Origin: Calditrichia bacterium
GTDB taxonomy: Bacteria; Calditrichota; Calditrichia; RBG-13-44-9; J075
Direction: 5' to 3'
Length of the DNA: 64,000 nucleotides
NCBI GenBank assembly: GCA_050633245.1
Contig: JBOEGD010000020.1
Location: 269,712 to 333,711 of the forward strand
Shown in pieces: positions 23,188-38,340 of the stretch. How positions within the stretch are numbered: position 1 is the first letter of the stretch; each line of letters opens with the position of its first letter. A program made the position numbers and the translations under genes. The notes beneath the pieces were generated by a model. That model was not told the DNA's origin. It was given only the letters and a program-made list of their open reading frames with translations, and made no database searches.

Positions 23188-25662
23188 ATGCGCTCATTAT
23201 CGCAACTAATCTTTGTCTTGCTAATTATTTTTTTAACGCTACCACTTTTTGCTCAAGGTCAGGGTTCACCGAATGTAACGCTTCTCGCGAATGTTGACCA
23301 GTATAGCAGCACCGGATATAATGATATTTGGGGCTATACTGCACCGGATGGCCGTGAGTATGCTTTGTTAGGTGTTCTGAACGGCACCAGCATTATCGAT
23401 ATCACTGATCCCGCGAATACGACCGAGATTAACTTTATCTCGTCTGCTCAATCTACCTGGCGAGACATTAAAACATATCAGACCTACGCGTATGTTGTGA
23501 ATGAAACTAGTGGCGGAATACAAATTATCGACCTATCGGATCTTCCTAACTCTGCTAACTTAATTACCTCATCCAATATTTTATCTGCTTCGCACAATAT
23601 CTATGTCGACGAACCTGCAGGCATTTTGTATTCTGAAGGTGAAAGTGGCTTGGCCGTTCGGATAATTAGTCTTGCCGATCCGGAAAACCCGGTTCAGATT
23701 TCGAGTATATCAGGTCAGTGTCACGATATATATGCACAGGATGGAGTGCTCGTTGTTTCCGAAGGAACGAATGCTTCTTTTGGTTTTTATGATGTTAGTG
23801 ATCCTGCAAACCCTACGCTTATTACACGCTTGAACGTTCCGGCTGGTGGCTATGCTCATAATGCCTGGATGACCGCAGATGGTAACCATATGATGACCAC
23901 TGAAGAAACCGGTGGTAAAACCGTTAAGCATTGGGATATTTCTGATTTCACTAATATAACTTTGGTATCCGAGGTTCTGGCGCCAGATGGTATTGCCCAT
24001 AATGCCCATATTAAACGCGAGTATTCTTATGTGTCGCATTATGGTGATGGTATGCGAATTTATGATGTCTCAGATCCGGCCAATGTAACAGAGGTTGGCT
24101 ATTACGATACCTTCCCGGGACCAGCTGGTGGTTTCGAAGGAAATTGGGGCGCTTATCCATTTCTCACAACGGGAAAAGTGTTAATCTCCGATCGTAGTAC
24201 CGGGCTATATGTCGTGCAGTTTGATGGTGCGATTGACGCCGATTTGCTCGACCCAAAATCGCCGGTTAGTTTAAATGCCTATAGCGATTATACAACCCCA
24301 ACTGGAATGACGCTTACCTGGACAGATCCCGACCAGTTTGTTAATGGTGATCCGCTGCCTTCGTCTGATCTTAGTATCGAGATTTCACGCGACGGCATTA
24401 TGGTTGGAACCGTTGCTGGTGGTACAGAGAGCTTTACTGACGCCGGACTTGTAGATGGACAAAGCTATAGCTACACGGCTTCTGCCCGAGTTATTTCGAA
24501 TGATAGCACAAGTTTTGAGGCGCGGGCAAGCTGGATCGCCGGTGGCTCAAAGATTCCTACAGCACCCACTCTGGTCGGTTTAGATGGCGATGCAAATGGC
24601 ATTACCATAACCTGGCGCAACGCGACAAAAAATATAGACGATACGCCAATGGATGACCTTGCTGAAATTCGTCTGTATCAGGACGGCTTATTTGTTGCCT
24701 CTTTCTCTCAGGCGACAAGCGATAGCGGTGCCACTGTAACCGAATCCTACACACCGGCAACAGCCGGCAACTATGCCTATACAATTACGAGCGTAGATAA
24801 CGAATCTCCGGAAAATGAGAGTGTTGTTTCCAATTCCGCATTTACCCCGCTTTCTGCGCCGTTCTCAGACAATTTTACTACCGCTGGTGTGCCGAACACC
24901 ACTATGTGGATGACCACTAATGTGGATGTAACCAATCGTGCAAGCGGCGAAGTGAGTGCACCGTTCTCGATGACGCTCAATGGAAATCCTGATGGAGAAG
25001 ACATTGTTGAGTCTTTGCCGATCAACCTGGCTGGTCTTGAAAACAATCAGGTAATGATGACCTATTGGTATCAGCCTGCCGGAACCGGTAATGACCCGGA
25101 AGTTCAGGACAGTCTACAGCTCTTCTTCAAAAATGATCAAAATCAGTGGGTTGTTATCAATGCCTATCCCGGTCGCCCATTTCAGGCTTTCCAGGAGGTT
25201 ACGGTCGATCTTGGCACGCTGCCTGCCGATCGTGGTAATATGTTCCACAGCCAGTTCCAGATGCGCTTCCGCAGCCTTGGTTCACAAAGCACGACTCAAT
25301 TCTTCGATGAGTGGTTTATCGATGATCTGAGTCTTGATCTCGGAATTGCTACCGGTATTGATGACGCAATTAGCGGCGTTATCAACGAGTTTAAACTGGA
25401 TGTGAACTTTCCCAATCCGTTTAACCCGTCTACTACGATTAGTTATCAACTGCCGAAGCAGAGCGATGTTTCCCTGACAATTGTCAATACGCTGGGTCAG
25501 AAAGTCCGCACACTTGTAGATGAATCTGTCTCTGCCGGAGCCTATGAAGTTGTCTGGAACGGTTTGAATGATGCAGGTCAGCAAGTGAGTAGCGGTCTTT
25601 ATTTTTATCGCATCGAAGCAGAAGGCTTCACGCAGACGCGTAAGATGATGCTGCTGAAATAA
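23188..25662 (+). CDS. Choice-of-anchor B secreted protein, paralogue 3
   Basis: Same architecture as 19663..22146; NFPNPFNP. Confidence 0.88.
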   Translation: MRSLSQLIFVLLIIFLTLPLFAQGQGSPNVTLLANVDQYSSTGYNDIWGYTAPDGREYALLGVLNGTSIIDITDPANTTEINFISSAQSTWRDIKTYQTYAYVVNETSGGIQIIDLSDLPNSANLITSSNILSASHNIYVDEPAGILYSEGESGLAVRIISLADPENPVQISSISGQCHDIYAQDGVLVVSEGTNASFGFYDVSDPANPTLITRLNVPAGGYAHNAWMTADGNHMMTTEETGGKTVKHWDISDFTNITLVSEVLAPDGIAHNAHIKREYSYVSHYGDGMRIYDVSDPANVTEVGYYDTFPGPAGGFEGNWGAYPFLTTGKVLISDRSTGLYVVQFDGAIDADLLDPKSPVSLNAYSDYTTPTGMTLTWTDPDQFVNGDPLPSSDLSIEISRDGIMVGTVAGGTESFTDAGLVDGQSYSYTASARVISNDSTSFEARASWIAGGSKIPTAPTLVGLDGDANGITITWRNATKNIDDTPMDDLAEIRLYQDGLFVASFSQATSDSGATVTESYTPATAGNYAYTITSVDNESPENESVVSNSAFTPLSAPFSDNFTTAGVPNTTMWMTTNVDVTNRASGEVSAPFSMTLNGNPDGEDIVESLPINLAGLENNQVMMTYWYQPAGTGNDPEVQDSLQLFFKNDQNQWVVINAYPGRPFQAFQEVTVDLGTLPADRGNMFHSQFQMRFRSLGSQSTTQFFDEWFIDDLSLDLGIATGIDDAISGVINEFKLDVNFPNPFNPSTTISYQLPKQSDVSLTIVNTLGQKVRTLVDESVSAGAYEVVWNGLNDAGQQVSSGLYFYRIEAEGFTQTRKMMLLK
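24643..25358 (+). repeat. ~715-bp near-identical intragenic duplication, copy 2
   Basis: Matches 21127-21842. Confidence 0.9.
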
Positions 25663-26363: not shown

Positions 26364-27425
26364 TTAGCAACATCCACCGGGACCGTCATCTGAACTGCCA
26401 GACTCTCCCGGGGCACAATCGAATTCACCATAATGTGTAGAACGATCGCCAATGATGGTAAAATACTTACCAAAGCGAGTTTCTTCAACCATTGCAGCCG
26501 AGTTACCACAGACCAACATTGGCATTCCTGTCTTGAAAAGATGATGATCATCGAGCATAAACTCATGAGGCGAATCTTCTATTCCACCATTATAAAATGC
26601 CACCTGACCAAAGTCTTCACAGATATCCTCCAGGCTGTTCAGCTTGAAAGCGCGGATAGTCATTGAGTAAAAGTCGATCATACCGGCTCGCTTTTCGATC
26701 TCCGGATTGTCCAGCGAAATTTGACGACTGCTTACAACGCGGTAATCCAGACAGCCAATATCTTGAAGCATGCGGCGGAAGTCCTCTACATAGAGCGCTC
26801 CCGAAAGGCACTCACCATACAGAACGGGATCTTCGCGTAGCTCTGTCGGAATCCGTCTTCCGCTAAATACATCAGAGAAATACAGCTCACCGCCCGGCTT
26901 CAACACGCGAAAGATTTCGGCAAATACCTTTTCTTTTACCGGAGACAGGTTTATCACGCAGTTGGAGATAACCACATCCACAGAGTTGTCGGCAATGCCG
27001 AGTGCCGCAAGATCTTCAATGTAGCCGTGATGAAATTCCGTGTTCGGTTTGGAAAATCCAAATGCTTTTGCCTGCTCCTCGCGGTATTTGTTCGCAACCT
27101 GAAGCTGTTCTTCAGTCATATCTACTCCGATAACACGCCCCTTTTCACCAACAAGAGCCGAGGCCAGATACACGTCTCTGCCACTTCCACAACCGAGATC
27201 CAATACCGTCATTCCCTCCAGGGCAAGTGGCATTGGTGAACCGCAGCCGTAAAACTTTTCCATGACCTCATCTGCAATATTAGCAAGAATGGCTTTGTGC
27301 TTTTCAGGCAGGTCTTCAGTTGTACAGCACGCACTGGTTTGCAAGTCATCGGTATTAGCGAGTATCTTGCCATAATAATCTTTTACTACATCATGAGTCT
27401 TTGCATCGAGAGTTATGGTAGCCAT
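26364..27425 (-). CDS. arsM: Arsenite S-adenosylmethionine methyltransferase (AS3MT-like long form)
   Basis: TSACC, FYGCG, LDLGCGSGRD, ISNCVINL, YGECLSGA (the conserved As-binding Cys positions); C-terminal GGCC. Confidence 0.92.
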   Translation of the reverse strand: MATITLDAKTHDVVKDYYGKILANTDDLQTSACCTTEDLPEKHKAILANIADEVMEKFYGCGSPMPLALEGMTVLDLGCGSGRDVYLASALVGEKGRVIGVDMTEEQLQVANKYREEQAKAFGFSKPNTEFHHGYIEDLAALGIADNSVDVVISNCVINLSPVKEKVFAEIFRVLKPGGELYFSDVFSGRRIPTELREDPVLYGECLSGALYVEDFRRMLQDIGCLDYRVVSSRQISLDNPEIEKRAGMIDFYSMTIRAFKLNSLEDICEDFGQVAFYNGGIEDSPHEFMLDDHHLFKTGMPMLVCGNSAAMVEETRFGKYFTIIGDRSTHYGEFDCAPGESGSSDDGPGGCC

Positions 27426-27476: not shown

Positions 27477-28265
27477 TTAATAAACCCCTGTTTTCCTCTC
27501 TTTTGCCGGAAGTACCTCAAGACAGGTTGTCCACCAGCCGGTAAGAACGGTTTCGACAAACTCTTCAGGTAGCCCCTCCGAACGCATTTCGGAAGCTAGG
27601 CGTTGAAAGTCATAGGCAATGGGGATATAAGTAAACTCAGGCGTCTCCTTCAGTTCGAGAAGCATATAACCAACATGCGTTTCGCCATTGTTCTCCGGAC
27701 GACCGATGACCCCGACATTGGCAAAGTGTTTGTCGCTTCGTAAAGACCGCTGCCAATGAATTCCGGTATGGGTTGCGCAGATGATATCAGCCTGATGGTC
27801 ATCGCAAAGCTTGCTGAGGAAATGGTCGGGCGTGGTAGAGTGCCAGAGAAATTCATTCATCTTTCGTGGAGAACCATGGCAAAGTAGAACTCGGTAGTCC
27901 CCCAAAAGGAAGCGTATTTCTTCAGGTAACTCGCGCATCCAGACTTTGTTTGCGTCGCTGGTGTTTGCGAATGTATAGTCATAGCTCAGTTTGGCAAAAT
28001 AGTTGTCGCGCGGGTCGGTATAGCCACATTGACAATCCTCCAGATTGTTTCCGATCGAATTGTCGTAATTTCCTTGAACAACCGGGATGTTATTGTCCAT
28101 CAAGAGCGGGAATACCCGATCTGGATACGGACCAAATGCGCCGAGATCTCCGAGGCAGTAAATGCCATCGACACCGCGGTCTTGTGCATCTCGAATCGTT
28201 TCTTCCAGAGCGAGATAGTTGCTATATACGCCGCCAATGAGAGCTACTTTTTTATGTTCTTTCAA
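27477..28265 (-). CDS. Calcineurin-like metallophosphoesterase with CQCGY insert
   Basis: GGVYSN (variant of DxH), LGDL, GNYD, HGSP, THTG, NVG. Confidence 0.85.
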   Translation of the reverse strand: MKEHKKVALIGGVYSNYLALEETIRDAQDRGVDGIYCLGDLGAFGPYPDRVFPLLMDNNIPVVQGNYDNSIGNNLEDCQCGYTDPRDNYFAKLSYDYTFANTSDANKVWMRELPEEIRFLLGDYRVLLCHGSPRKMNEFLWHSTTPDHFLSKLCDDHQADIICATHTGIHWQRSLRSDKHFANVGVIGRPENNGETHVGYMLLELKETPEFTYIPIAYDFQRLASEMRSEGLPEEFVETVLTGWWTTCLEVLPAKERKTGVY

Positions 28266-28309
28266 TATTGCTACTACCTATTGTTTAGTGCTTGTGTCGC
28301 AATCATGAA

Positions 28310-29269
28310 TTAACCCATGACGCGTTTATCTTGCTGTCCCGCGTCTTGCTCTACTGGACGCGCGTTTTTAAGCGTCTCCTTGCTGCCCATAGTTGCATTC
28401 GTGCATATCGAGCCATAGAGATAGCAGGTATAGCAGGCTTGTTCGCTTAGATTATAGCTCTTGGTGGATTCTTTAAGCGTCTTGCCCATATAGGCGGACG
28501 GTGATTCCAGTAATATGGGGCAAACCACAACACCGCGATTTGTTGCCACACGACTATTTGAGCAAATGAGTTGGCTACAGTCATAATCGACCAACATTTC
28601 AGGCGTGATATGTTCGTAGCTGTCATAGCCACGTGTTCTGGCAATCTCTTTACCGATTTTCAAAGACGGCAAAATCTTTAAACGCGGGCGTTGATATCCG
28701 TGTTCTTTCAGAACGCGGATAAATCCTTCCATGACGGCTTCATCTTCAGTCTCTGCCCACGTTTTGGTTATGGTAATGATGGGAAGAAATCCATGCTCAT
28801 AAAGCAACTTGGTTCCCGCCATGGCTTTTTTAAAAACACCTTCACCGCGAATGGCATCGTTCATTTCTTCGGTGTATCCGTCCATGGAGATTCGCATTTC
28901 CAGCGAATAGCGTGATGCTGCTTCAATTTCCTGAAGGCGTTTGGCGCGCTTTTCTGTGATTAGCATGCCGTTAGAGAGAACCGTTGCCGGGCCATAGGTG
29001 AGTGTTAGTTCCAGAATTTCCAGCATCTGCTTGTTGATGAAGGGCTCTCCTCCGGTGAAGTAATATTCCTTCACACCCAACTCCACGGATTGCTCCAGAT
29101 AGCCATGAACTTCTTCCAGAGTCATAATACCAAAGTTGTGGTTTGTAGGGCTACAGCTGATAAAGCAATGACCGCAAGCAATATTGCAAAGCGTTCCGCT
29201 TACCTGGAACCACAGGTTGTCCAAAGAATCTAAATGCAGATCCGGATGCGCTGTTTGAGTTGCTGACAT
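28310..29269 (-). CDS. Radical SAM protein, ArsS-like
   Basis: CNIACGHC, FTGGEPF, and C-terminal Cys motifs (LICS, VCP, CYTC..GSIC) in the layout of ArsS; next to arsM. Confidence 0.8.
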   Translation of the reverse strand: MSATQTAHPDLHLDSLDNLWFQVSGTLCNIACGHCFISCSPTNHNFGIMTLEEVHGYLEQSVELGVKEYYFTGGEPFINKQMLEILELTLTYGPATVLSNGMLITEKRAKRLQEIEAASRYSLEMRISMDGYTEEMNDAIRGEGVFKKAMAGTKLLYEHGFLPIITITKTWAETEDEAVMEGFIRVLKEHGYQRPRLKILPSLKIGKEIARTRGYDSYEHITPEMLVDYDCSQLICSNSRVATNRGVVVCPILLESPSAYMGKTLKESTKSYNLSEQACYTCYLYGSICTNATMGSKETLKNARPVEQDAGQQDKRVMG

Positions 29270-29291
29270 TATTTGTTCCTTACACTTAAAA

Positions 29292-30533
29292 TTACATGGT
29301 TAGCGACTGATGTTCGACATCCCGATATAGGTCCAGGGCAGAGTCTTCCTTGATGAGTTGGAAAACATCGCGAATTTGCTCATGACCAATGCGAAGCAAA
29401 AAGTTTGGACTCTTTCCATAGCTCTTCATGCCAATAATGTAAAAGTTGGGTTCAGGGTTCTTTAAGACCTCCGCACCCTTACTGGTCTGCGCCAGACAAT
29501 CTTCTGAAGAATCTCCAAGTAGTGCAGCAGCCAGGCTCATTGGTCCGCGCGAAGCATAGCATTCATGAATTTGCAGCTCGCTGTATAAAGAGTTGTCAGG
29601 AGAGTGGCCAACACAGGCCAGGATTTGATCGGCTTCAATGCTCTGAAAGGAATCTCCCTGACGAATTTCTACCGTAAACGAGGTGTCAGTCTTCTTTTGA
29701 ATAGACTGTATCAGTGCACCTGAGATTCGGGTAACGGCTGCAGACTGTGCGACCCGATTCGCTCGGTCAATAATACGAGTACGCTCCTGTAGTGGATCAC
29801 TTTCGATTGTTGAGAACGGGGGAGTATTATCGCTGCGCGTTATCCAGATTAGTCGGCTACCAGGCGCTGTTGCGCACAGATCCTCGAAGTTTGCCAGCGT
29901 TGTTGCCGCACTGTGTCCATTGCCAATCAGCAACATCGTTTTGTTCGCATATTGCTTGGCATTTGCTTTAAAGTTTGCGATTCCATACTCTATCGAGCTT
30001 TGTAGGCCTTGCTCGCCAATGGCAGGAATCCCGCCTTCACCAAGCCAGTTTGCATTTGAGAAAGTGCCGCTGCAGTCTAAAACCACGTCGGCAGTCTCGA
30101 CAAACTCATTGCCGTCTTCCTTGCGCAATAATAAGCGGAATGGAAAGGTTGCTCTGGCCGGATCACCAATCATATCGCGTTTCATCTGCGTGCTTCGTGC
30201 GACACTGATTACCTCAACACCGGAATGAATGAGGTCTTTTATAGCCGGGGTATCAGCCAGTGGAAGTAAATATTTATTGCGAAACTCATTTCCGCTTAGA
30301 TATGAATCATCATCTGGTAATGTATGATTGGTCTGGCTTAAGTATTCTCGACCAAGCGTGGAGGCGTTCATCTTGAATGGGGAGAAGAATGTGACGTGTT
30401 GCCACTGTTTTATGTGGTTTGCAACGGATGCCTTTTCGAAAACGCTCACCTTATATCCAAGGTGGGTTGCATAAAGCGCTGCTTCCAATCCGATCGGACC
30501 TGCGCCGATAATTGCGATGTGTTTCGTGTCCAT
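29292..30533 (-). CDS. FAD/NAD(P)-dependent oxidoreductase (flavin monooxygenase-like, ArsO/ArsV-type superfamily)
   Basis: IIGAGPIGL FAD motif, IGNGHSA NAD(P) motif, ELQIHECYAS, EPNFYIIGMKSYG; start ATG 30533. Confidence 0.85.
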   Translation of the reverse strand: MDTKHIAIIGAGPIGLEAALYATHLGYKVSVFEKASVANHIKQWQHVTFFSPFKMNASTLGREYLSQTNHTLPDDDSYLSGNEFRNKYLLPLADTPAIKDLIHSGVEVISVARSTQMKRDMIGDPARATFPFRLLLRKEDGNEFVETADVVLDCSGTFSNANWLGEGGIPAIGEQGLQSSIEYGIANFKANAKQYANKTMLLIGNGHSAATTLANFEDLCATAPGSRLIWITRSDNTPPFSTIESDPLQERTRIIDRANRVAQSAAVTRISGALIQSIQKKTDTSFTVEIRQGDSFQSIEADQILACVGHSPDNSLYSELQIHECYASRGPMSLAAALLGDSSEDCLAQTSKGAEVLKNPEPNFYIIGMKSYGKSPNFLLRIGHEQIRDVFQLIKEDSALDLYRDVEHQSLTM

Positions 30534-30641
30534 CGTTTCCCTCTTTGGTTTTAGACAGGGCATGCTGAACCGCATGGATGTAACCCATCGGTCGAGCAGA
30601 AGGAGTCTCTGTCGAGATTTAACTTGTGTTGTGATCGTATT

Positions 30642-31457
30642 TTAGCGCTGGGCTACGGGAGGGGGAAGCTGAAAAAGATGTGTAAACTCCAGCTGTTGCG
30701 GAATAATGTTGCGGTGCGATCTATCGCTTATAAAGGCTGGTAGTTTCAACGAATTTAAAAGTGTTGCCAGTTGCGAAATTAGAGATGCTGTCTTGTTATG
30801 CGCCTTTTGAAACCAGCGTTTTAAGTCCGAAGAGTTGTCAATGTCCTGTAGGGAAGGTAGCAGAAATATGTTGTGTCTGGCGCGTTTTAAATTCTCAAGA
30901 AGCGTGGAACTTACGCTGTTTGTGCCCCAGGAAAGATTGTCAAAAAGAGATCTCGAAAAACTGGAGAGACCAAGCAGGTAAAAGCCGCCATCACATGAAT
31001 TGCCTAAAACGCTATGACCACACTTCAGCTGTTCGAATGTGTCTATCAAATGACTCGCCGACAAATCGAGACAGTCATTACCGATAATCGCAACATGTTT
31101 ATAGCCCTTGGAAAATCCTGAGCTGAGAGCGGATGATATATTTGTATTGAAATTTGACCCCGAGTGAGCAATGAAATCAAACGGTAGCGGGTGTTCACAT
31201 GAATCGTTTATTTTCTGAAGAGCGGTAAGATCAGACGCATCTGATGCGATTATTAAATCGAATGGAGAAAGAGCCTGTGCTTCTGAAATTGTTTTAAAGA
31301 GGTGCTGTAAAAAATAGCGATAAACAACCAGTTGGGAATGGGCATTTTTCGTCAAGCGTTTCTGCCGCGCGTCCTTTAACGGATCGCGTGTTAGTAGAAC
31401 CAGTGCGTTAGAACAAGACTTCTGTGATTTTAAGGGTTTCATTTCCTGCTGCTTCAT
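30642..31457 (-). CDS. DUF2064 (TIGR04282/CofC-like) transferase
   Basis: IIGNDC, LGNSCDGGFYLLGL, LSWGT, LQDIDNSSDL. Confidence 0.85.
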   Translation of the reverse strand: MKQQEMKPLKSQKSCSNALVLLTRDPLKDARQKRLTKNAHSQLVVYRYFLQHLFKTISEAQALSPFDLIIASDASDLTALQKINDSCEHPLPFDFIAHSGSNFNTNISSALSSGFSKGYKHVAIIGNDCLDLSASHLIDTFEQLKCGHSVLGNSCDGGFYLLGLSSFSRSLFDNLSWGTNSVSSTLLENLKRARHNIFLLPSLQDIDNSSDLKRWFQKAHNKTASLISQLATLLNSLKLPAFISDRSHRNIIPQQLEFTHLFQLPPPVAQR

Positions 31458-31567
31458 TGTTACGGTTGCTTAGTATAACTTACATAAGAATCGTCATTAA
31501 AGTTCTCACGAAACTGTAACATTTTTGTGCATACACTGATCTTTTTTTGAAGTCCAAGGTGGATAAT

Positions 31568-32326
31568 TTACTTCTTATCCAATTCAGATCGGATGTCGGA
31601 GAGATTCTGTTCGAATTGTCGCTTGGTCTTAAAATGCCAATCGAAGGCTGATGAGAAGATTGTAACCAAGATAATTGTGCCGGCACCAATAACCCCTTTG
31701 AGCGTGCCGGAAATTTTTGACTTTCCTATTCGTTTGCGATAGCGAACCGGAACTTCCAGTTCTCGAACCCCACGTTGGGCAGCTTTGATTTGCATCTCGA
31801 CTGTCCAGCCATAGGTTTGATCCTTCATGTTCAGGGAATTTAACGCCGAGAGCGTTATTGCGCGGAAGGGGCCAAGATCTGTATATCGAACTCCCCAAAA
31901 CAGCCGCATGAGTTTGCAGGAGAGCCAGTTACCAAATATCGCCTGTGGGGTTAATGCACCTTTTTCAGAATCACCTGCAACGCGCGAGCCGATGACCATT
32001 TCGAACTTCCCTGATAAAATAGGATCGACCAGCAAGTCCATCTCTTCCGGGTAATCGCTGTAGTCGCCATCCAGAAAAACCACGATGTCTGTTTCTTCCT
32101 GAAGTGCTTCAATGCCGGCAAGACAGGCAGAGCCGTATCCGCGCAGGTTTTCTGAAATTACGCGCGCTTTGTGGGCACGTGCAACCTGAGCCGTATTGTC
32201 CGTAGAGCCGTTGTCTACAACAATAACATCGTCTACATAATGTGGAATATCGCTGATAACCTTACCGATAGACTGTTCTTCATTCAAAACGGGGATGATG
32301 ACTGAAATTCGCAAGTCGTTCTTCAT
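31568..32326 (-). CDS. GT2 glycosyltransferase (polyprenol-phosphate glycosyltransferase-like)
   Basis: IIPVLNEE, VDNGSTD, FLDGD, TDLGPFRA, GKSKISGT. Confidence 0.92.
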   Translation of the reverse strand: MKNDLRISVIIPVLNEEQSIGKVISDIPHYVDDVIVVDNGSTDNTAQVARAHKARVISENLRGYGSACLAGIEALQEETDIVVFLDGDYSDYPEEMDLLVDPILSGKFEMVIGSRVAGDSEKGALTPQAIFGNWLSCKLMRLFWGVRYTDLGPFRAITLSALNSLNMKDQTYGWTVEMQIKAAQRGVRELEVPVRYRKRIGKSKISGTLKGVIGAGTIILVTIFSSAFDWHFKTKRQFEQNLSDIRSELDKK

Positions 32327-33776
32327 ATCCTTCTGCTACCTCCGTTGGTGTGGCAGTTAACGATTGCCGATTCAGCCTCCATTCATATATAAATACGAGC
32401 CAAACAGGTACAAATTCAACCCAAACAACCCACTGACTAAAGATGTCTGTACGACCCATAAGGTTGTAGCAATGCCATAAATAATACAGCGGCATTAGTG
32501 CAGTCAGCATAAATAATGATCGGCGTTGATAAAGCACAAGAAGAGGGACTATCCAGATTGCATACCATGGGAATTGTGTTGGACTTAGCATGAAAATAGC
32601 CGTAACAACCATCAGGCAGCGTCTTATAAGCTCCTGCTTTTTTCCAGGATGAGAAAAACTATACCAGGAAATCAGTGCCAGACAAAGTAGTGCAACCAGG
32701 CCTCTGGCGCTCTGTTGAGCGTATAGATGAGCGAAACCTTCCCGCAAATCGAATAGGTTAAAGAACACATCAAATGCGGAAAAGATCATTAAGAATAATG
32801 AATCATTAAGCTGCCAGCGTTGGCTATAGGCGTTTAAGCCGGAGCCAGAGTCCAGGCCAGTGGCATAAATGGGCCAGAAGAAGAGTGCCGTAAGCGTCAG
32901 CGTAATGCTGAGAGCAATAAATAATTTCAGGGGTTGTCTCAGCCAGGGGCGAAAAAGTATGGGGAACAGGGCCAGCGGCCAAATCTTTATTGCGCCTGCA
33001 AATGCGATAAATATGCTCGCCCAAAGCGGTCGATTTTGAAATACCAATAGCAGAGCCGCTAATAAGAAAGGAAATATAAGCAAGTCCATGTGGGCAGAAT
33101 TGAATATCTCTTTTATAAGAAGCGGATTCAGCCAATAAGCGGCAAGCCAAAGCGGTGAAAGACTCAGATGCGCTAACAGCTTAAACAACAGGAATGTCGT
33201 TATCACATCCATTAACAGGAGAACAATTTTCCATGCGGTAATGCTCCACGGAAAAATCCAGTGTGCCAGTGCAAAGAAAAACTGCGTGACTGGTGGATAG
33301 ATCGTACGCAAATAAGAATGATTAATCTCGTTCAGGTGAGCGGAACCGGATTTTTTAACCTTGCTAAACCCATCATTGGGTACCGTGTTCTTTATCGCAT
33401 CAGGAGAGTGGGAATATGGATTTAAGCCATTTGCTGTTACTGCACCATCCCATAAATAGCGATGATAGTCATCTTCCAAAATCGGCGTAGAGGTGATTGC
33501 CGCCAGCCTCATAATTATGCCAAGAAAAAGAACCCATAGGAGAACCTGTTTTTTGGCAGGTGTGTGTACGATGCCCTCAATAAGAAATAAATAGGCCATT
33601 CCGGCGAGCACCATTAGAAAAACAAAGTGTTCATACGGATATTCAGTGGCAGGGATATCCATGCTGAAAGCGGGGCTAAGTTGAATGGCGGAGAAAAAAA
33701 ATCCCAATAAAAATAGTCCACCAAGGAACCATCTTATCGGGATTTTAAAAGACTTTAGATCGATGCTTCTAAACAT
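32280..33776 (-). CDS. Polytopic GT-C fold glycosyltransferase (GT87/DUF2029-like)
   Basis: EDDYHRYLWDG, TIYPP, WLNPLLIKE, HMD, PWY; many TM helices. Confidence 0.85.
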   Translation of the reverse strand: MFRSIDLKSFKIPIRWFLGGLFLLGFFFSAIQLSPAFSMDIPATEYPYEHFVFLMVLAGMAYLFLIEGIVHTPAKKQVLLWVLFLGIIMRLAAITSTPILEDDYHRYLWDGAVTANGLNPYSHSPDAIKNTVPNDGFSKVKKSGSAHLNEINHSYLRTIYPPVTQFFFALAHWIFPWSITAWKIVLLLMDVITTFLLFKLLAHLSLSPLWLAAYWLNPLLIKEIFNSAHMDLLIFPFLLAALLLVFQNRPLWASIFIAFAGAIKIWPLALFPILFRPWLRQPLKLFIALSITLTLTALFFWPIYATGLDSGSGLNAYSQRWQLNDSLFLMIFSAFDVFFNLFDLREGFAHLYAQQSARGLVALLCLALISWYSFSHPGKKQELIRRCLMVVTAIFMLSPTQFPWYAIWIVPLLVLYQRRSLFMLTALMPLYYLWHCYNLMGRTDIFSQWVVWVEFVPVWLVFIYEWRLNRQSLTATPTEVAEGYEERLANFSHHPRFE

Positions 33777-33812
33777 TTGAACAGGTGTATCCTTTTCAAA
33801 GACTTGTAGACT

Positions 33813-35261
33813 TTATCGCTGTCCGGAAAATGAGGAGATTGCGATATAATAAAAGCCGAATTGAAACAGCAGAAAAAATGGTGCAGAATAGTATATTTCC
33901 TGCGAAATAAAATAGTACCAACCATAGGTAAAGTAGCTGGCTATCATAAATTCAAAGATATGCTGATAATTCTTACCGGGTCGATAAAGTTTTTTGCGCC
34001 AACTTCCTTTTTTGCCTTCAAGCTTGAACTTCGGCGTGCGAATGAAGTCGCTTTTGTAGCCTAGTAATGCTTCCAATGCCGCCTTACCGTTGTTGAAAGA
34101 CAACCCGATTCCAAAAGCCATTAACAGTGGCAAATAAAGCACGTGTGGCCAAAGTTTGCCAAGTGAATCGCGAATCGCAACGCTATAATAAATCAGAATG
34201 GAAATGGTTGCGGCAAAGAAGACCATAAAATAAACGAACACCAACTTCCACGGAACATCGCCCATCGCAAGCTGCGTTTTTAATACCGGCACCAGTAATA
34301 GCGCCGGAATGGCCATCAATAAATAGGCGAAGTTATTGGAGAGGTGAATAATCGCTTCAACACGGATATAAAACGGATGATCAGACTGCCAAATACGCTT
34401 CATTAGCTTAAGAGCGGTTTGCACCGAACCTTTTGCCCAGCGATGCTGCTGGCCTTTATAGGCATTCATTTCTGCAGGAAGTTCAGCCGGTGAAACCACA
34501 TTTGGCAGATAGCGAAACTTCCAGCCAACAATCTGTGCACGATAGCTAAGATCGAGATCTTCAGTGAGGGTGTCATGTTGCCAGCCACCCGCATCGCTAA
34601 TGGCTTGCTTACGCCAAACGCCTGCCGTTCCGTTAAAGTTAAAAAATCGACCAGAGCGATTTCGGGCAAGATGCTCAATAATGAAATGCGCATCAAGAAA
34701 GATCGCCTGCAGCTTAGTCAGCAGAGAGTAATTGCGGTTAATATGACCCCAGCGCGTTTGCACCATGCCTATTCCCGGCTGCATGAGATGAGGAATAGTT
34801 TTACGCAAAAAGTCGCTGTTCGGTACAAAATCCGCATCAAAGACTGCTACAAACTCGGCATCGGTATGCTTCAGTCCATAAGCAAGTGCGCCTGCTTTGA
34901 AGCCCACGCGATTACTGCGCCTGACATGGTCGACTCGCCAACCCTTCTTCTGAAGCGTTTCAACGAGTTTTGCAGACAACCGAACGGTGCTGTCAGTAGA
35001 GTCATCAAGCAATTGGATATGCAGCTTATCTTTTGGATAGTCCATGCAAATGACTGTCTTGAGGAGTCGCTTTACGACGTATTTTTCATTGTAAATGGGA
35101 AGCTGAACCGCTACCTCCGGCCATTCTTCTGGCTCATCAATCTGAGGTTCGGGGTGGCGTTTGTACTGTCGGTACATATACAGTAGGTGGTACTTGTGAA
35201 TTCCGAAAAGACCCAGAATCACCAGGGCAAATATATATATGCCAAATAAGAAGTTATCCAA
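33813..35261 (-). CDS. Cellulose-synthase-like processive GT2 (CslA-like)
   Basis: QLPIYNE, DDSTD, KAGAL, FDADF, TEDLDLS, QQHRW (QxxRW), C-terminal TMs; TTG start. Confidence 0.93.
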   Translation of the reverse strand: MDNFLFGIYIFALVILGLFGIHKYHLLYMYRQYKRHPEPQIDEPEEWPEVAVQLPIYNEKYVVKRLLKTVICMDYPKDKLHIQLLDDSTDSTVRLSAKLVETLQKKGWRVDHVRRSNRVGFKAGALAYGLKHTDAEFVAVFDADFVPNSDFLRKTIPHLMQPGIGMVQTRWGHINRNYSLLTKLQAIFLDAHFIIEHLARNRSGRFFNFNGTAGVWRKQAISDAGGWQHDTLTEDLDLSYRAQIVGWKFRYLPNVVSPAELPAEMNAYKGQQHRWAKGSVQTALKLMKRIWQSDHPFYIRVEAIIHLSNNFAYLLMAIPALLLVPVLKTQLAMGDVPWKLVFVYFMVFFAATISILIYYSVAIRDSLGKLWPHVLYLPLLMAFGIGLSFNNGKAALEALLGYKSDFIRTPKFKLEGKKGSWRKKLYRPGKNYQHIFEFMIASYFTYGWYYFISQEIYYSAPFFLLFQFGFYYIAISSFSGQR

Positions 35262-35350: not shown

Positions 35351-35558
35351 ATTTTTTTAAGATCCACAAACCTTACTAAACCTTTATCACAAAAGGATAA
35401 CCATTCCCTAATTTTTTCCTGTCATTGGGAAGAACATGTTTTCCAAACATCTGAGCAGGGGGTGAGCTATTGATTGCCTCTCTGAAAATTTGTGCTTTCC
35501 GTGAGCCCTTAGCTTCACTATTTTATTCAGCAAAGACAAACTATAACAGATATGGGTT

Positions 35559-37499
35559 ATGCTGGCAATTTATAAATTCAGTTTTCAAGAGAATGAAACT
35601 CCGCAAATACGGTCGGAGCATATTGAGCATGTCGGGAAAAATCTGTCTGCTCATTTCAATACGCGCGAGTGGGTACACTGGACGTCAGGCCCAACCCTAT
35701 ATGTTTTTTTAGTCCATCAATCTGGTGAAGAGATAAGTGCTGCTAAAGTTTGCAAGGCGTTTGAAGACGAGTTGCCGTGTCAGCCTTTAGCGTCCGAGTT
35801 CTACTCAGGAGAGGCTGCTGTAGAGCATTTTTTAGAGGTGGCTTCCGGAATTGCTCATGGATTATATGGCCGAGCGCATTTAGAGGCTTTGCAGGAAAGT
35901 TATCAGAATGCTACAGGACGTGGTACTATCGGCCCGATTATGCATCATCTGTTTCAGCGAGGTATTTTGCTGCACGAGCAAGTGCGACAGGATACCGACT
36001 TCTTTCGTCTGGCGGTAAACTCTGAGGCTGCACTATACGAGCTTTCTGCTAAGGTACTTGCCTTAAGCGAAGGCAGTCGTGTTTTGTCAATTGGGGATAT
36101 AGAACCCGCATTGCCATTTTTCCATTTTTTGCGTGGCAGGGGAATACGTCACCTACAGGCTGTCAGCGATACAGAGGCACCTGAGCAATTGCCTGACTTT
36201 ATTACCTTTAAGATGTCTAAGTATGTTCAGCCAATCTCCGCTGATGAAAGTGTGCTACTCCTCTTTCCCTCAACAGCTCTTCAGATCTCGGATGCGCAGC
36301 TAATCGAGCTGGCGAAAACCCGTAAGAAACCTCTGCTGGTGTTCGACCTTACCAATACTGCGCGAAACCTGCGTAGTCTACGCCGCCAGGCAATGCTCTA
36401 TTTTAATACTGAAGACGACCTGAAGGCCGTTATCTCTTCAAATTTAAACGGGAGAAAACAGACGACTCGCGAGATTTCACGCTGGATATCACTCGAGCGC
36501 GAGCAATTCTTCCAGTGGCTTGCCAGCGATGAGCGTTTTGAATTTGCCGGTATTGTCGGTTCTACGCCGGCAATGCAGCAAGTGTTTGAACTCATCTCTC
36601 GTATTGCCCGTACCGATATAACGGTGCTGATAGACGGGGAAAGCGGAACGGGTAAGGAGCGGGTTGCACGTGCGATTCACTCCCTTAGCGGACGCTCTGA
36701 ACGCCCATTTCAAGTTCTTAATTGCGGTGCGATTCCGGAGAACCTTCTTGAGAGTGAACTGTTTGGGCACGAAAAAGGTGCCTTTACCGGAGCTGTTGTC
36801 CAAAAACGCGGTCTATTTGAGGAAGCCGATGGCGGTACGTTGCTACTCGATGAAATTGGTGAATTACCTGCTCATCTTCAGGTAAAGCTGCTGCGCTTTC
36901 TACAGGAAGGGGAAATTAAGCATGTCGGCAGCAATGAAACTCGTAAAGTTGATGTGCGAATTGTTGCGGCAACCAACCAGGATCTTGCTGCCATGGTGGC
37001 CAAGCAGACCTTTCGTAGTGATTTGTATTATCGGTTAAATGTGTTGCAGCTTACCGTGCCTCCACTGCGAAAGCGCAAGGAGGATGTGCTGTTGTTGGCC
37101 GAGCATTTTCGCCGCCGTTTCTCCCAAAAGCTGCATAAGTCGGTCAACTCAATTTCCGACGAGGCCTTACGCGTGCTGCAGCATTACAGTTGGCCGGGAA
37201 ACGTGCGCGAACTGGAAAATGCTATTGAACGCGCAGTTGCTCTCGCACTTGGGGAACAAATACTTGCTGTAAATCTGCCTCAAATTGTGCAGAGCCCGCC
37301 AGTTGCCGGTGCGGCAATGAGCGATATTCCATTCCGTGGTAAGCAGCTTACGCTGAAAGAACTGGAAAGGGAATATATTTTAGCAACGCTGGAACAGTTC
37401 GATTGGAATTATGATGAGGTCTGCAAGAAGTTGGCTATTGGACGTACGACTCTATGGCGAAAGCTGCGCGAATATAATGTAATTCCGCCATCCTCATAA
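35559..37499 (+). CDS. Sigma-54 enhancer-binding protein with an N-terminal degenerate glutamyl-tRNA reductase (HemA)-like domain
   Basis: AAA+ ([28 protein letters not shown]) and Fis HTH; N-terminal ~325 aa align by eye to HemA ([57 protein letters not shown]). Confidence 0.85.
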
Positions 37500-37500
37500 A

Positions 37501-37533
37501 TTTCAACTTGAAAAACGCCGTTTCAAGTTGAAA
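37501..37533. promoter_or_regulatory. Tandem palindromes, candidate upstream activator sites
   Basis: TTTCAA-C-TTGAAA (37501-37513) and TTTCAA-G-TTGAAA (37521-37533), 20 bp centre to centre, about 135-165 bp upstream of a -24/-12 site. Confidence 0.65.
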
Positions 37534-37666
37534 TTCCTGCACAGTATGCAGTCTTTTGGTAAATTCTCTCCCAAAAATCTTCTCTCTGTTTTAAGTGGTT
37601 GTTTATATTCGTCATGTAGTCTCTTTTTTGTGTTCCTTTTCTTGTCGGTACTCCTAAATTTGTTCT

Positions 37667-37682
37667 TGGCACAGCAATTGTT
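37667..37682 (+). promoter_or_regulatory. Candidate sigma-54 (-24/-12) promoter
   Basis: TGGCAC-AGCAA-TTGTT, about 70 bp upstream of the lipoprotein start. Confidence 0.65.
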
Positions 37683-37749
37683 TAGAGTATTCGCAGTTGT
37701 ACCTTAGCATGTTTATTGAATACTCTAACATATCCAGGAGCTTGTCGCA

Positions 37750-38241
37750 ATGAAACGCAATACCCTCACTTTTCTCTTCATGTTTTTACTTTTTGGTCTT
37801 TTTACTTTATCCTGCAGTGATGATAGTCCTACTGAAGTCCCTGAGTTTGGTAGCATTTCCGGAACTGTATCCTTTACCGGAACCTGGCCCGCAGCCGGCG
37901 ATATTCAGGTTTCTATCTACGCGCCGTTGACACCTCCATACGTTCCTACCGGAGCTCCGCTGGCTTTTACGGATCCGATAGCTTCCGGTGTAAACACATA
38001 TGACTTCAACTTTGAAGGGTTGGAAAAAACTGAATATGGCGCTATCTTTGTGAGCTGGCGCGATCCTGCAAACCCTGCAGCCTCCAAGCTATTGGGTATG
38101 TACTGGACAGATGCGACGGATGCCGGAATTAATGTTCAAACCGGACTTCCGACAGCCCAGCCATCTACAATTACCATTGATGATGATAATATTGACGTGA
38201 CCGGTGCGAATCTAACTGCGAATTTAGATCTGGCACAATAA
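37750..38241 (+). CDS. Hypothetical lipoprotein
   Basis: Lipobox TLSC followed by SDDSPT; GSISGTV beta-sandwich-like start; AGGAG RBS. Confidence 0.85.
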   Translation: MKRNTLTFLFMFLLFGLFTLSCSDDSPTEVPEFGSISGTVSFTGTWPAAGDIQVSIYAPLTPPYVPTGAPLAFTDPIASGVNTYDFNFEGLEKTEYGAIFVSWRDPANPAASKLLGMYWTDATDAGINVQTGLPTAQPSTITIDDDNIDVTGANLTANLDLAQ

Positions 38242-38271
38242 GTTTCGCTTAACATAGAATCATATTGTTTA

Positions 38272-38340
38272 GACGAGATCGTTCATGCCAAACGTGCCGA
38301 TGCCCCTGGCGGCATGGCCGATCTCGTCGACGATTTTTTT
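38272..38340 (+). terminator. Long intergenic hairpin plus T run between lipoprotein and TonB receptor (attenuator or stabiliser)
   Basis: GACGAGATCG..CATGCC pairs with GGCATG..CGATCTCGTC; T7 at 38334-38340. Confidence 0.5.

Follow-up and report, generated by a model that had tools for sequence, protein, structure and literature searches.

A glutamyl-tRNA reductase-derived domain fused to a predicted sigma-54 activator in Calditrichota: a possible heme-status switch

Introduction

What does a transcriptional activator respond to when its sensory module descends from a biosynthetic enzyme? The question is raised by one gene in a 64,000-nucleotide (nt) stretch of the genome of a Calditrichia bacterium (GenBank assembly GCA_050633245.1, contig JBOEGD010000020.1, positions 269,712 to 333,711), hereafter the window. 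The gene, at 35559-37499 on the forward strand, encodes a protein of 646 amino acids (aa), P0001, that a preliminary description made from the letters alone had read as a sigma-54 activator with a degenerate glutamyl-tRNA reductase (GluTR, also HemA or GtrR) as its sensory domain. Our answer, to which we give a probability of about 60%, is a heme-status switch that derives from the feedback pair of HemX and GluTR and drives two kinds of operon: the heme-biosynthetic (hem) operon and an operon for a lipoprotein-like protein (LIPO) and a TonB-dependent receptor. Below, G000 is the window's genome (6.35 Mb, 97.1% complete), WIN is the window locus, and L-, G- and f-numbers denote loci, genomes and families compared within the phylum.

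The N-terminal domain of P0001 is a glutamyl-tRNA reductase homologue

Open reading frame (ORF) analysis gave one long frame at the locus and no competing frame. The gene and its parts are:

35559..37499, +: sigma-54 enhancer-binding protein P0001 with a GluTR-derived N-domain, 646 aa (ORF calls, Pfam, homologues of the same length and architecture)
35559..36533, +: GluTR (HemA)-like pseudoenzyme sensor domain, aa 1-325 (phmmer against the PDB, profile, exhaustive search, column comparison, Atlas structural match)
36552..37052, +: AAA+ sigma-54 interaction domain, aa 332-498 (Pfam Sigma54_activat PF00158, 2.9e-73)
36636-36659, +: Walker A motif GESGTGKE, aa 360 (motif position)
36777-36794, +: GAFTGA loop, aa 407-412 (motif position)
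36840-36863, +: Walker B motif LLLDEIGE, aa 428 (motif position)
37068..37295, +: AAA+ lid domain AAA_lid_14, aa 504-579 (Pfam PF25601, 1.3e-25)
37350..37475, +: Fis-type DNA-binding domain HTH_8, aa 598-639 (Pfam PF02954, 2.7e-12)
37440-37466, +: recognition helix GRTTLWRKL within HTH_8 (motif position, alignment columns)

We began with the N-terminal region, which had been said to track HemA over about 325 aa and to be neither REC, GAF nor PAS. Both statements proved right. Pfam finds GlutR_N, as had been anticipated, at aa 78-146 (27.8 bits, cut-off 27). A phmmer search of the PDB with aa 1-325 returned the GluTR structures 1gpj_A at 4.6e-11 (query 84-312 to 78-313) and 4n7r_A at 0.0036, the remaining matches amounting to one chance match, and a profile of four family members returned 1gpj_A at 6.2e-18 (positions 30-314), 4n7r_A at 4.9e-8 and no others. 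An exhaustive phmmer search of 1.84 billion proteins gave 1003 matches at E<=1e-3; the top ~22 are fusions of the same architecture, and the rest among the 150 matches listed are mostly proteins of ~420 aa, 108 of them with the HemA TCNR motif. Consistent with these searches, the predicted ESM Atlas model of residues 1-328 matches GluTR models with TM scores of 0.75-0.83 over 305-326 residues, and GluTR accounts for 10 of the 10 structural matches.

The HMMER alignment to 1gpj_A reproduced every motif pair on which the preliminary description had relied: the first has EAVRHLFRVASG on the HemA side, VLSIGDIE pairs with VLVVGAGEM and PLLVFDL with PILIIDI, the listed helix pair is recovered, and the spinal region has DDLRVIARENL as its HemA counterpart. 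The domain thus retains a remnant of the N-terminal catalytic domain, followed by a degenerate Rossmann domain and the beginning of the 'spinal' helix. The GluTR match stops at aa ~325, and in a real HemA of the phylum the dimerisation domain (GlutR_dimer) begins at aa 323, so the AAA+ domain does begin where that domain would be. These results confirm that residues 1 to ~325 of P0001 are a glutamyl-tRNA reductase homologue.

The C-terminal half had been described as a complete bacterial enhancer-binding protein (bEBP), and the Pfam domains and motifs listed above bear this out: with a Walker A/B AAA+ domain, a GAFTGA loop and HTH_8, P0001 has the sequence features of the class and is predicted to activate transcription. 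The F-T-G-A positions of the loop are invariant in an alignment of 14 relatives, as are residues R, T, T, L, W, R and K of the recognition helix among 14 family members, and G000 carries rpoN (Sigma54_DBD match 2.7e-58, contig C4). Many named activators in NCBIfam match P0001, over aa ~310-640 only; the best named equivalog, NifA, scores 367 against a cut-off of 528.85 and covers only aa 322-572. Because scores lie far under every curated cut-off, P0001 is none of the named regulators.

The GluTR-like domain has lost the residues of catalysis

We compared 22 fusion N-domains column by column with 60 HemAs, using the numbering of P0022 for HemA residues. The catalytic S-T-C-N-R motif, whose T, C, N and R are 100% conserved in the 60 HemAs, aligns to T42-S43-G44-P45-T46 of P0001, as the earlier reading of TCNR as TSGP had it. 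With G44 in its column, the catalytic Cys is gone from P0001, and the motif is absent from 22 of the 22 family members. As at S-T-C-N-R, the fusion family shows no consensus at the HemA-invariant S112, G116, E117, Q123, second Rossmann Gly and V-P-R. P0001 has lost the equivalents of S112, G116, E117, Q123 and V-P-R but retains H90, the equivalent of H102, which is kept in 7 of the 22 N-domains; K153 has become Glu in 21 of them. We take the lost residues to be those that, as in 1GPJ, bind glutamate and NADPH in substrate recognition.

The NADPH motif GxGxxG fares similarly. Its first Gly (G179) alone is kept and HemA G192-A193-G194 reads G-D-I in P0001 (SIGDIE), in line with the earlier remark that the GAGEM glycines are mostly lost; one family member, P0004, retains a GAGAA stretch there. 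Pfam found no dimerisation domain (GlutR_dimer, PF00745) in P0001, and none was found elsewhere in G000. The positions that are kept are structural: A99, G109, G138, L144, R156, T159, D247, P276, D281, N313, R317 and W338. Across 18 diverse loci the N-domain is 14-31% identical to that of P0001, with K165 as the sole invariant residue. Judged by its residues, then, the N-domain is a pseudoenzyme, a catalytically dead descendant of GluTR, and the loss of catalysis in 22 members together with the conserved architecture supports the proposal that an enzyme was repurposed as a bEBP regulatory domain.

The fusion is an authentic protein family

The search for the same architecture that the preliminary description had called for yielded ~22 cluster representatives of 620-680 aa, with GAFTGA in each that reaches that far and TCNR in none. 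Within Calditrichota, ~24 of 86 species genomes carry ORFs of 615-680 aa with the N-domain, in families f1, f6 and f8. In a quick maximum-likelihood (ML) tree of 80 rows a single branch (SH-aLRT 99) splits the fusion N-domains from the HemAs, and the phylum's own HemAs cluster with the enzymes. This is consistent with a single old origin of the fusion family; the internal order of the tree is unsafe because its branches are long. Databases name members 'AAA family ATPase [Calditrichota]' and 'sigma 54-interacting transcriptional regulator [candidate division KSB1]', and it is this one NCBI label, 'candidate division KSB1', that suggests a range beyond the phylum. Scans with the deep-branching P0053 and P0019 gave 6 and 80 loci that match in the AAA+/HTH part only (query residues from ~205); these are generic bEBPs and therefore say nothing of the family's taxonomic range.

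That the gene is an assembly chimera, or a decaying pseudogene without function, has a negligible probability. The 646-aa frame is intact, and homologues of equal length stand in ~24 genomes and among the 22 cluster representatives. One Logan contig of 15,108 nt, from runs X1 and X2 of one study, spans 35400-38300 unbroken; it differs from the window in 227 letters (~92% identity), and its only indels fall at 37610-37618, between genes, so that the junction is crossed, without any indel in the ORF, by an independent contig in two runs (from runs X4 and X5 there are only short pieces). We therefore rejected the chimera on the homologues and the junction-spanning contig, and the conservation of all AAA+ and HTH motifs is contrary to decay.

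The preliminary description knew of no HemA-bEBP fusion, and neither did our searches of the literature on GluTR, enhancer-binding proteins, heme biosynthesis and RpoN turn one up among the papers listed; in the searchable text of a 2025 survey of sigma-54 regulons a term search met none of heme, glutamyl and Calditrich. P0001 thus extends a known class, that of the bEBPs, by a novel sensory module of enzyme origin and a novel predicted regulon.

Palindrome pairs and sigma-54 promoter-like elements precede the hem and LIPO operons

Directly after the stop codon of the fusion gene lies a pair of palindromes with the consensus TTTCA-N3-TGAAA, and beyond it a promoter-like element and two genes:

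37501..37513, no strand: palindrome 1 of a putative enhancer (upstream activating sequence, UAS), TTTCAACTTGAAA; the pair is unique in the genome and stands at the same place in relatives
37521..37533, no strand: palindrome 2 of the putative enhancer (UAS), TTTCAAGTTGAAA, 20 bp from palindrome 1; pairs also precede hem and LIPO operons
37537..37551, +: small hairpin and T-rich tail, a possible but weak terminator of the activator gene; such sites are not above the shuffle count
37667..37682, +: sigma-54 promoter-like element TGGCACAGCAATTGTT, -24 GG, -12 'GT', with one mismatch; counterparts are conserved
37750..38241, +: predicted target gene 1, LIPO, a 163-aa lipoprotein-like beta-sandwich protein; 44% identical orthologue in L004
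38285..40621, +: predicted target gene 2, a 778-aa TonB-dependent receptor with an N-terminal CarboxypepD_reg-like domain (Pfam); 53% identical orthologue in L004

The 6.35 Mb of G000 hold 83 single palindrome sites and just this 1 pair. It recurs at the same place in L004, L033 and L037-L041, and exact pairs stand at the 3' end of the fusion in 8 of 22 loci. We considered the post-stop repeat as an intrinsic terminator and discarded the idea: it has no G-C stem and is not called as a terminator, and the same pair precedes operons that have no fusion gene upstream. The promoter-like element follows about 135 bp past the palindromes and 68 nt before the ATG at 37750. Since the window as a whole shows no excess of sigma-54-like matches (34 found, 34.9 expected), it is position and conservation that make the case for this promoter; in 13 of 22 loci the fusion gene is flanked by a sigma-54-type element, which in L042-L045 faces a divergent receptor.

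Neither Pfam nor NCBIfam has a family for LIPO; in the Atlas it meets only unnamed clusters and weak DUF2141- and CarboxypepD_reg-like structural matches. The receptor has FRAP and NPDL motifs with, by eye, no His between them. A TonB-dependent receptor adjoins the fusion in 10 of 22 loci, downstream in WIN, L004, L033, L034, L040 and L041 and divergently in L042-L045, and orthologues of both LIPO and the receptor occur in L004, L040 and L041.

We then looked for the same elements away from the fusion locus, searching five f1 genomes for exact pairs and comparing 22 hem operons over 450 nt upstream. In G068 the sole exact pair lies 243-211 nt before the hemX start of the hem operon, followed by TGGCACATGATTTGT at -82; in G059 it lies before an unlinked operon for LIPO and a TonB-dependent receptor, with TGGCATTCCGCTTGC. 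Palindromes precede the hem operon in 11 of 12 fusion-bearing genomes and in none of 10 fusion-less ones, a contrast that overstates independence because the genomes compared are relatives. Of the 11 positive operons, six have exact pairs, that of G070 has two exact sites 198 nt apart, that of G065 a loose pair, and a further three single exact sites (in G059 beside a loose second site); G039 is the one without. A fusion-less member of a fusion-bearing family, G033, has a hem operon with no palindromes. The strict sigma-54 pattern is present before the hem operon in 4 of the 12 fusion-bearing genomes and none of the 10 others.

LIPO itself occurs in 13 of the 86 genomes of the phylum, all 13 of them fusion-bearing. 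Upstream palindromes and a sigma-54 promoter accompany it in 12 of 12 assessable genomes and in L004; in G067 the upstream region is cut by a contig end, and in G069 one half-site is degenerate.

At L037 3791-4101, L038 7250-7560 and L039 7750-8058 (minus strand), in G036, G037 and G035 respectively, we noted a hairpin, GCCGGCGGGC...GCTCGTCGGC followed by T6, roughly 40-130 nt past the palindrome pair and sigma-54 promoter that lie downstream of the fusion gene (the distance is shortest in G035). The hairpin is perfectly conserved among the three genomes while its flanks diverge, and its transcript is a candidate sigma-54-dependent small RNA of the regulon. Rfam gave the short L038 transcript a sub-threshold match only, 24.4 against 60 bits.

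The window's genome lacks the heme pathway

A canonical hemA, which the preliminary description had hoped to see elsewhere in the genome, was found in G000 neither by domain search nor by tblastn. GlutR_dimer, ALAD and HemC domains are likewise absent, and tblastn with the operon proteins of G068 found no hemC, D, E, B or H. The hemA query finds the fusion only, those for hemL and PPO draw weak generic matches, and for hemL these are aminotransferases at 27-28% identity.

What is left of the pathway is a single hemX. We use opX for the hem-operon type of hemX gene, and fX for a ~272-aa PF01578 HemX-like gene beside the fusion. G000 carries an orphan opX of 274 aa, 45% identical to that of G068, at C11:264477-265286 (L048 6469-7293). 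It is placed mid-contig (593 kb), and a convergent gene lies 8 nt beyond it, so the loss of hem is not merely that of a missing contig. The genome has users for heme: two COX1 genes, 12 ORFs with at least four CxxCH motifs (up to 25), and CcsBA-type biogenesis genes. By its gene content, the organism of the window requires heme but is auxotrophic for it.

Such auxotrophy seems common in the phylum, judging by hemB, which is absent from 43 of 86 genomes and from 22 of the 53 high-quality ones. The fusion occurs in 12 genomes with the pathway and in 12 without hemB, and six genomes at least 90% complete have it while lacking both hemB and a canonical hemA (G000, G069, G034, G038, G049 and G051).

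HemX as a candidate partner with genomic support

The gene fX lies immediately upstream of the fusion, in the same orientation, in 14 of 22 loci; the other 8, some at contig ends, show none. In the phylum's hem operons opX stands upstream of the canonical hemA in 22 of 23 (none was detected in G065), as in the G068 order hemX-hemA-hemC-hemD-hemE-...-PPO-hemB-hemL-hemH. The two types have the same length and share invariant residues, three His among them, at 21-31% identity. Because GluTR-fold genes of both kinds mostly follow a hemX-type gene, the fX-fusion pair looks like an old duplicate of hemX-hemA.

Retention of hemX in auxotrophs follows the fusion. Auxotrophs that bear the fusion with no adjacent fX keep an orphan opX (G000, G064 and G069), that of G064 (51% identity) still having one palindrome and a sigma-54-like element, whereas G062 and G063, auxotrophs at 97% completeness that have no fusion, yielded no PF01578 gene of HemX size. 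Choby et al. (PMC5801465) report that across 978 genomes hemX is always accompanied by gtrR and by heme synthesis, and that hemX and gtrR adjoin in 106 of 113 genomes. When heme is plentiful HemX reduces the abundance of GluTR (PMC5801465, PMC10991733), by a mechanism that PMC10991733 describes as unknown.

A complex predicted for fX and the N-domain of G068 scored ipSAE 0.60 (runs 0.60, 0.59 and 0.62; best control 0.00), labelled 'weak support': this is a weak pass, and by the calibration such a score is oftener wrong than right unless the pairing is already likely. That calibration, whose counts hold only roughly because we used our own alignments, comprised 80 solved complexes, of which 58 attained the mark, and 110 mismatched pairs, of which 2 did; just 7 of the 80, but both passing mismatches, attained it at 0.60 or under. 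The predicted runs agree in at least 91% of contacts, with a partner pLDDT of 80. We know of no solved HemX-GluTR complex that the prediction could be recalling. The genomic evidence supports HemX as a candidate partner, which the preliminary description had not named.

Neighbouring genes and other features

Divergent from the fusion gene, at 30642-35261 on the minus strand of the window, lies an operon for a GT2 protein (482 aa), a GT87-like membrane protein (498 aa), a second GT2 protein (252 aa) and a DUF2064 protein (271 aa). It adjoins the fusion in 9 family-f1 loci, the GT2 being 72-76% identical; neither palindrome nor sigma-54 element was seen in the intergenic region between the fusion and the divergent GT2 in the window. 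In L004 (13138-13830), L033, L034, L040 and L041 the receptor is followed by a conserved ~230-aa protein, with 55-62% identity to the copy of L004. Searches of Pfam, NCBIfam and the PDB gave no match to this protein, and no counterpart follows the receptor of the window.

Farther off, the window contains two pairs of identical 16-mers at the same 3516-nt offset (21202-21217 / 24718-24733 and 21696-21711 / 25212-25227), which suggest a tandem pair of paralogous genes; one would be that of an 824-aa secreted protein at 23188-25662, whose C-terminus looks, by eye, like a type IX secretion system (T9SS) sorting domain. Pfam identifies a metallophosphoesterase, a radical-SAM protein and a pyridine-nucleotide-disulphide oxidoreductase at 27477-30575 (minus strand), and a 353-aa methyltransferase-like ORF with a Cys-rich C-terminus adjoins this cluster at 26364-27425.

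Discussion

The heme-status switch would work as follows. A P0001-type protein would bind the palindrome pairs and activate the sigma-54 promoters of the hem and LIPO/receptor operons. At heme sufficiency the GluTR-like domain would keep the AAA+ motor off, through the HemX-like membrane protein, the route by which GluTR proper is controlled in Firmicutes, and possibly also by binding heme directly; its spinal helix might act like the coiled-coil linkers that hold NtrC1/DctD-type activators inactive. Heme shortage would therefore switch on heme synthesis and/or outer-membrane uptake. In the window's organism the biosynthetic operon has been lost while the regulator, the orphan hemX and the receptor operon are left, and the regulator would control uptake of heme, another tetrapyrrole or an iron chelate for the many cytochromes.

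Several observations weigh against this switch. It is co-occurrence and position that suggest binding of P0001 to the palindromes, and the hem-operon counts come from relatives. Besides the operons with the strict sigma-54 pattern, six more fusion-bearing hem operons have GGCAY-N5-TTGH, a form recognised by eye in a relaxed look that covered the fusion-bearing set, and the window's own promoter, of the form TGGCAC-N5-TTGT, reads TTGT and not TTGC at -12. The window's fusion gene has no adjacent HemX-like gene, a gap of 297 bp separating it from the divergent GT2 gene, and the only HemX of G000, the opX, lies on a different contig and is preceded by neither palindrome nor sigma-54 element; the predicted complex for G068 is the weak pass described above. 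The structural likeness to GluTR is that of ESM Atlas models. No Cys or His is conserved in the N-domain across the 18 diverse loci, which therefore offer no obvious heme ligand or conserved small-molecule pocket. The receptor, too, is ambiguous: its best NCBIfam match, TonB-hemin TIGR01785, scores 182.8 bits against a cut-off of 316.85, it stays under the curated B12-family cut-off as well, and its closest solved relative is the catecholate receptor CirA (1.2e-31), ahead of PhuR (2.6e-24), so that its cargo may be an iron chelate.

These points shape the alternatives. The GluTR-like domain could itself bind heme or another tetrapyrrole and gate AAA+ assembly, HemX being a dispensable, inherited neighbour. 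The window gene and several family-f1 loci with no adjacent HemX-like gene would then be no surprise, S. aureus GluTR can bind heme according to PMC10991733 (citing Leasure 2023), and the persistence of the fusion in genomes that lack the pathway fits the sensing of an end product. Against it stand the missing Cys and His, the retention of a HemX gene in fusion-bearing auxotrophs but not in fusion-less ones, and the report in PMC10991733 that loss of GluTR heme binding left heme homeostasis unchanged, with HemX the necessary component. We consider direct sensing unlikely. Far more improbable, to the point of a long shot, is a sensor of a pathway substrate or partner such as Glu-tRNA(Glu), NADPH, glutamate-1-semialdehyde or HemL, inputs among which the preliminary description had proposed Glu-tRNA, NADP(H) and HemL. 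The GluTR fold does extend across the catalytic and Rossmann domains and P0004 does keep GAGAA, but the catalytic Cys, the pocket residues and every Rossmann glycine except the first are lost family-wide, and with the pockets destroyed NADPH and the glutamyl moiety are unlikely inputs. HemL is an unlikely partner because genomes that show no trace of the hem operon still carry the fusion, at least six of them (at least 90% complete) with neither hemB nor a canonical hemA; we rejected it on finding no hemL orthologue in G000, only the generic aminotransferase matches.

The receptor leads to another alternative, in which the regulon answers to iron or some other nutrient, the receptor takes up a siderophore or another chelate, and the GluTR-like domain serves only as a scaffold, an oligomerisation module or a handle for proteolysis. 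CirA as the closest solved receptor, with FepA/PirA-type receptors matching too, speaks for this, as do receptor-family scores that all fall under curated cut-offs and the poor conservation of the sensor domain; iron being a co-substrate of heme synthesis, co-regulation of hem would still make sense. Yet the sensor derives from a heme-regulated enzyme and is paired with HemX, that enzyme's heme-dependent regulator, the regulon includes the whole heme operon, and the best NCBIfam matches of the three fusion-adjacent receptor types are heme and B12 receptors, both for tetrapyrroles. We regard an iron regulator as rather improbable, and continue to prefer the heme-status switch.

How does the proposed system compare with known ones? 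P0001 shares with NtrC, NifA, DctD and NorR the GAFTGA-bearing AAA+ domain, the Fis-type HTH and an N-terminal regulatory module, and the locus shares with that class paired dyad-symmetric upstream sites ~100-250 bp from a -24/-12 promoter; the module, however, is of GluTR fold and not REC, GAF, PAS, V4R, ACT or any other listed sensory domain. With GluTR (1GPJ, 4N7R) it is homologous over the catalytic-domain, Rossmann-domain and spinal-helix regions, and in the 14 loci with fX the fusion stands where hemA would, right behind a hemX-type gene. Unlike GluTR it lacks the Cys, the substrate residues, an intact NADPH motif and the dimerisation domain, and it forms a separate, fast-evolving group joined to a transcription motor. 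Metabolic enzyme folds also provide the signal input of the AAA+-type activator DhaR, which is controlled by DhaK/DhaL; in P0001 the enzyme-derived domain is covalently fused and appears catalytically dead. The receptor resembles the TonB heme/hemoglobin (TIGR01785) and B12 (TIGR01779) families in that these are the best, though all sub-cut-off, NCBIfam matches of the three fusion-adjacent types, with CirA the best solved match and PhuR among the top ones; it differs in its CarboxypepD_reg-like domain and its companion beta-sandwich lipoprotein.

A further parallel is the HemX-GtrR feedback of B. subtilis and S. aureus, where likewise an eight-helix-type PF01578 protein (~272 aa here) is encoded beside a GluTR-fold protein, and which is published (PMC5801465, PMC10991733) as a response to heme sufficiency. 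There the output is post-translational, enzyme abundance, whereas here it would be sigma-54 transcription, and the pair is found here also in genomes without heme synthesis, contrary to the pattern published for 978 genomes (PMC5801465). A bolder account, tentative enough that we would sooner bet against it than for it, makes HemX-GluTR an ancient two-protein heme sensor, a duplicate of which was wired to transcription by fusion of a dead GluTR to a sigma-54 motor. HemX, a CcsA-like membrane protein, would read heme at the membrane and hold or release the activator, which would set both heme synthesis and a new TonB receptor/lipoprotein route for heme or porphyrin uptake, and auxotrophs would have kept the sensor and the uptake arm. 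If that were true, the promoter would be a genetically simple read-out of how HemX senses heme and acts on GluTR.

The finding adds GluTR, as a pseudoenzyme descended from a working enzyme, to the sensory domains of bEBPs and would offer a clear case of a biosynthetic enzyme converted into a regulator of its own pathway. The orphan hemX of G000, G064 and G069 breaks the rule published in PMC5801465 that hemX is never without gtrR and heme synthesis. The HemX-GluTR pair is seemingly hard-wired to a promoter, which would make the interaction testable by reporter, and the predicted regulon is compact: hem and lipoprotein/TonB-receptor operons, each behind a defined operator and a sigma-54 promoter, in a phylum that has received little attention. 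In auxotrophs that keep the regulator and the receptor, as the window's organism does, it may be a candidate system by which marine and sediment bacteria scavenge tetrapyrroles or iron chelates.

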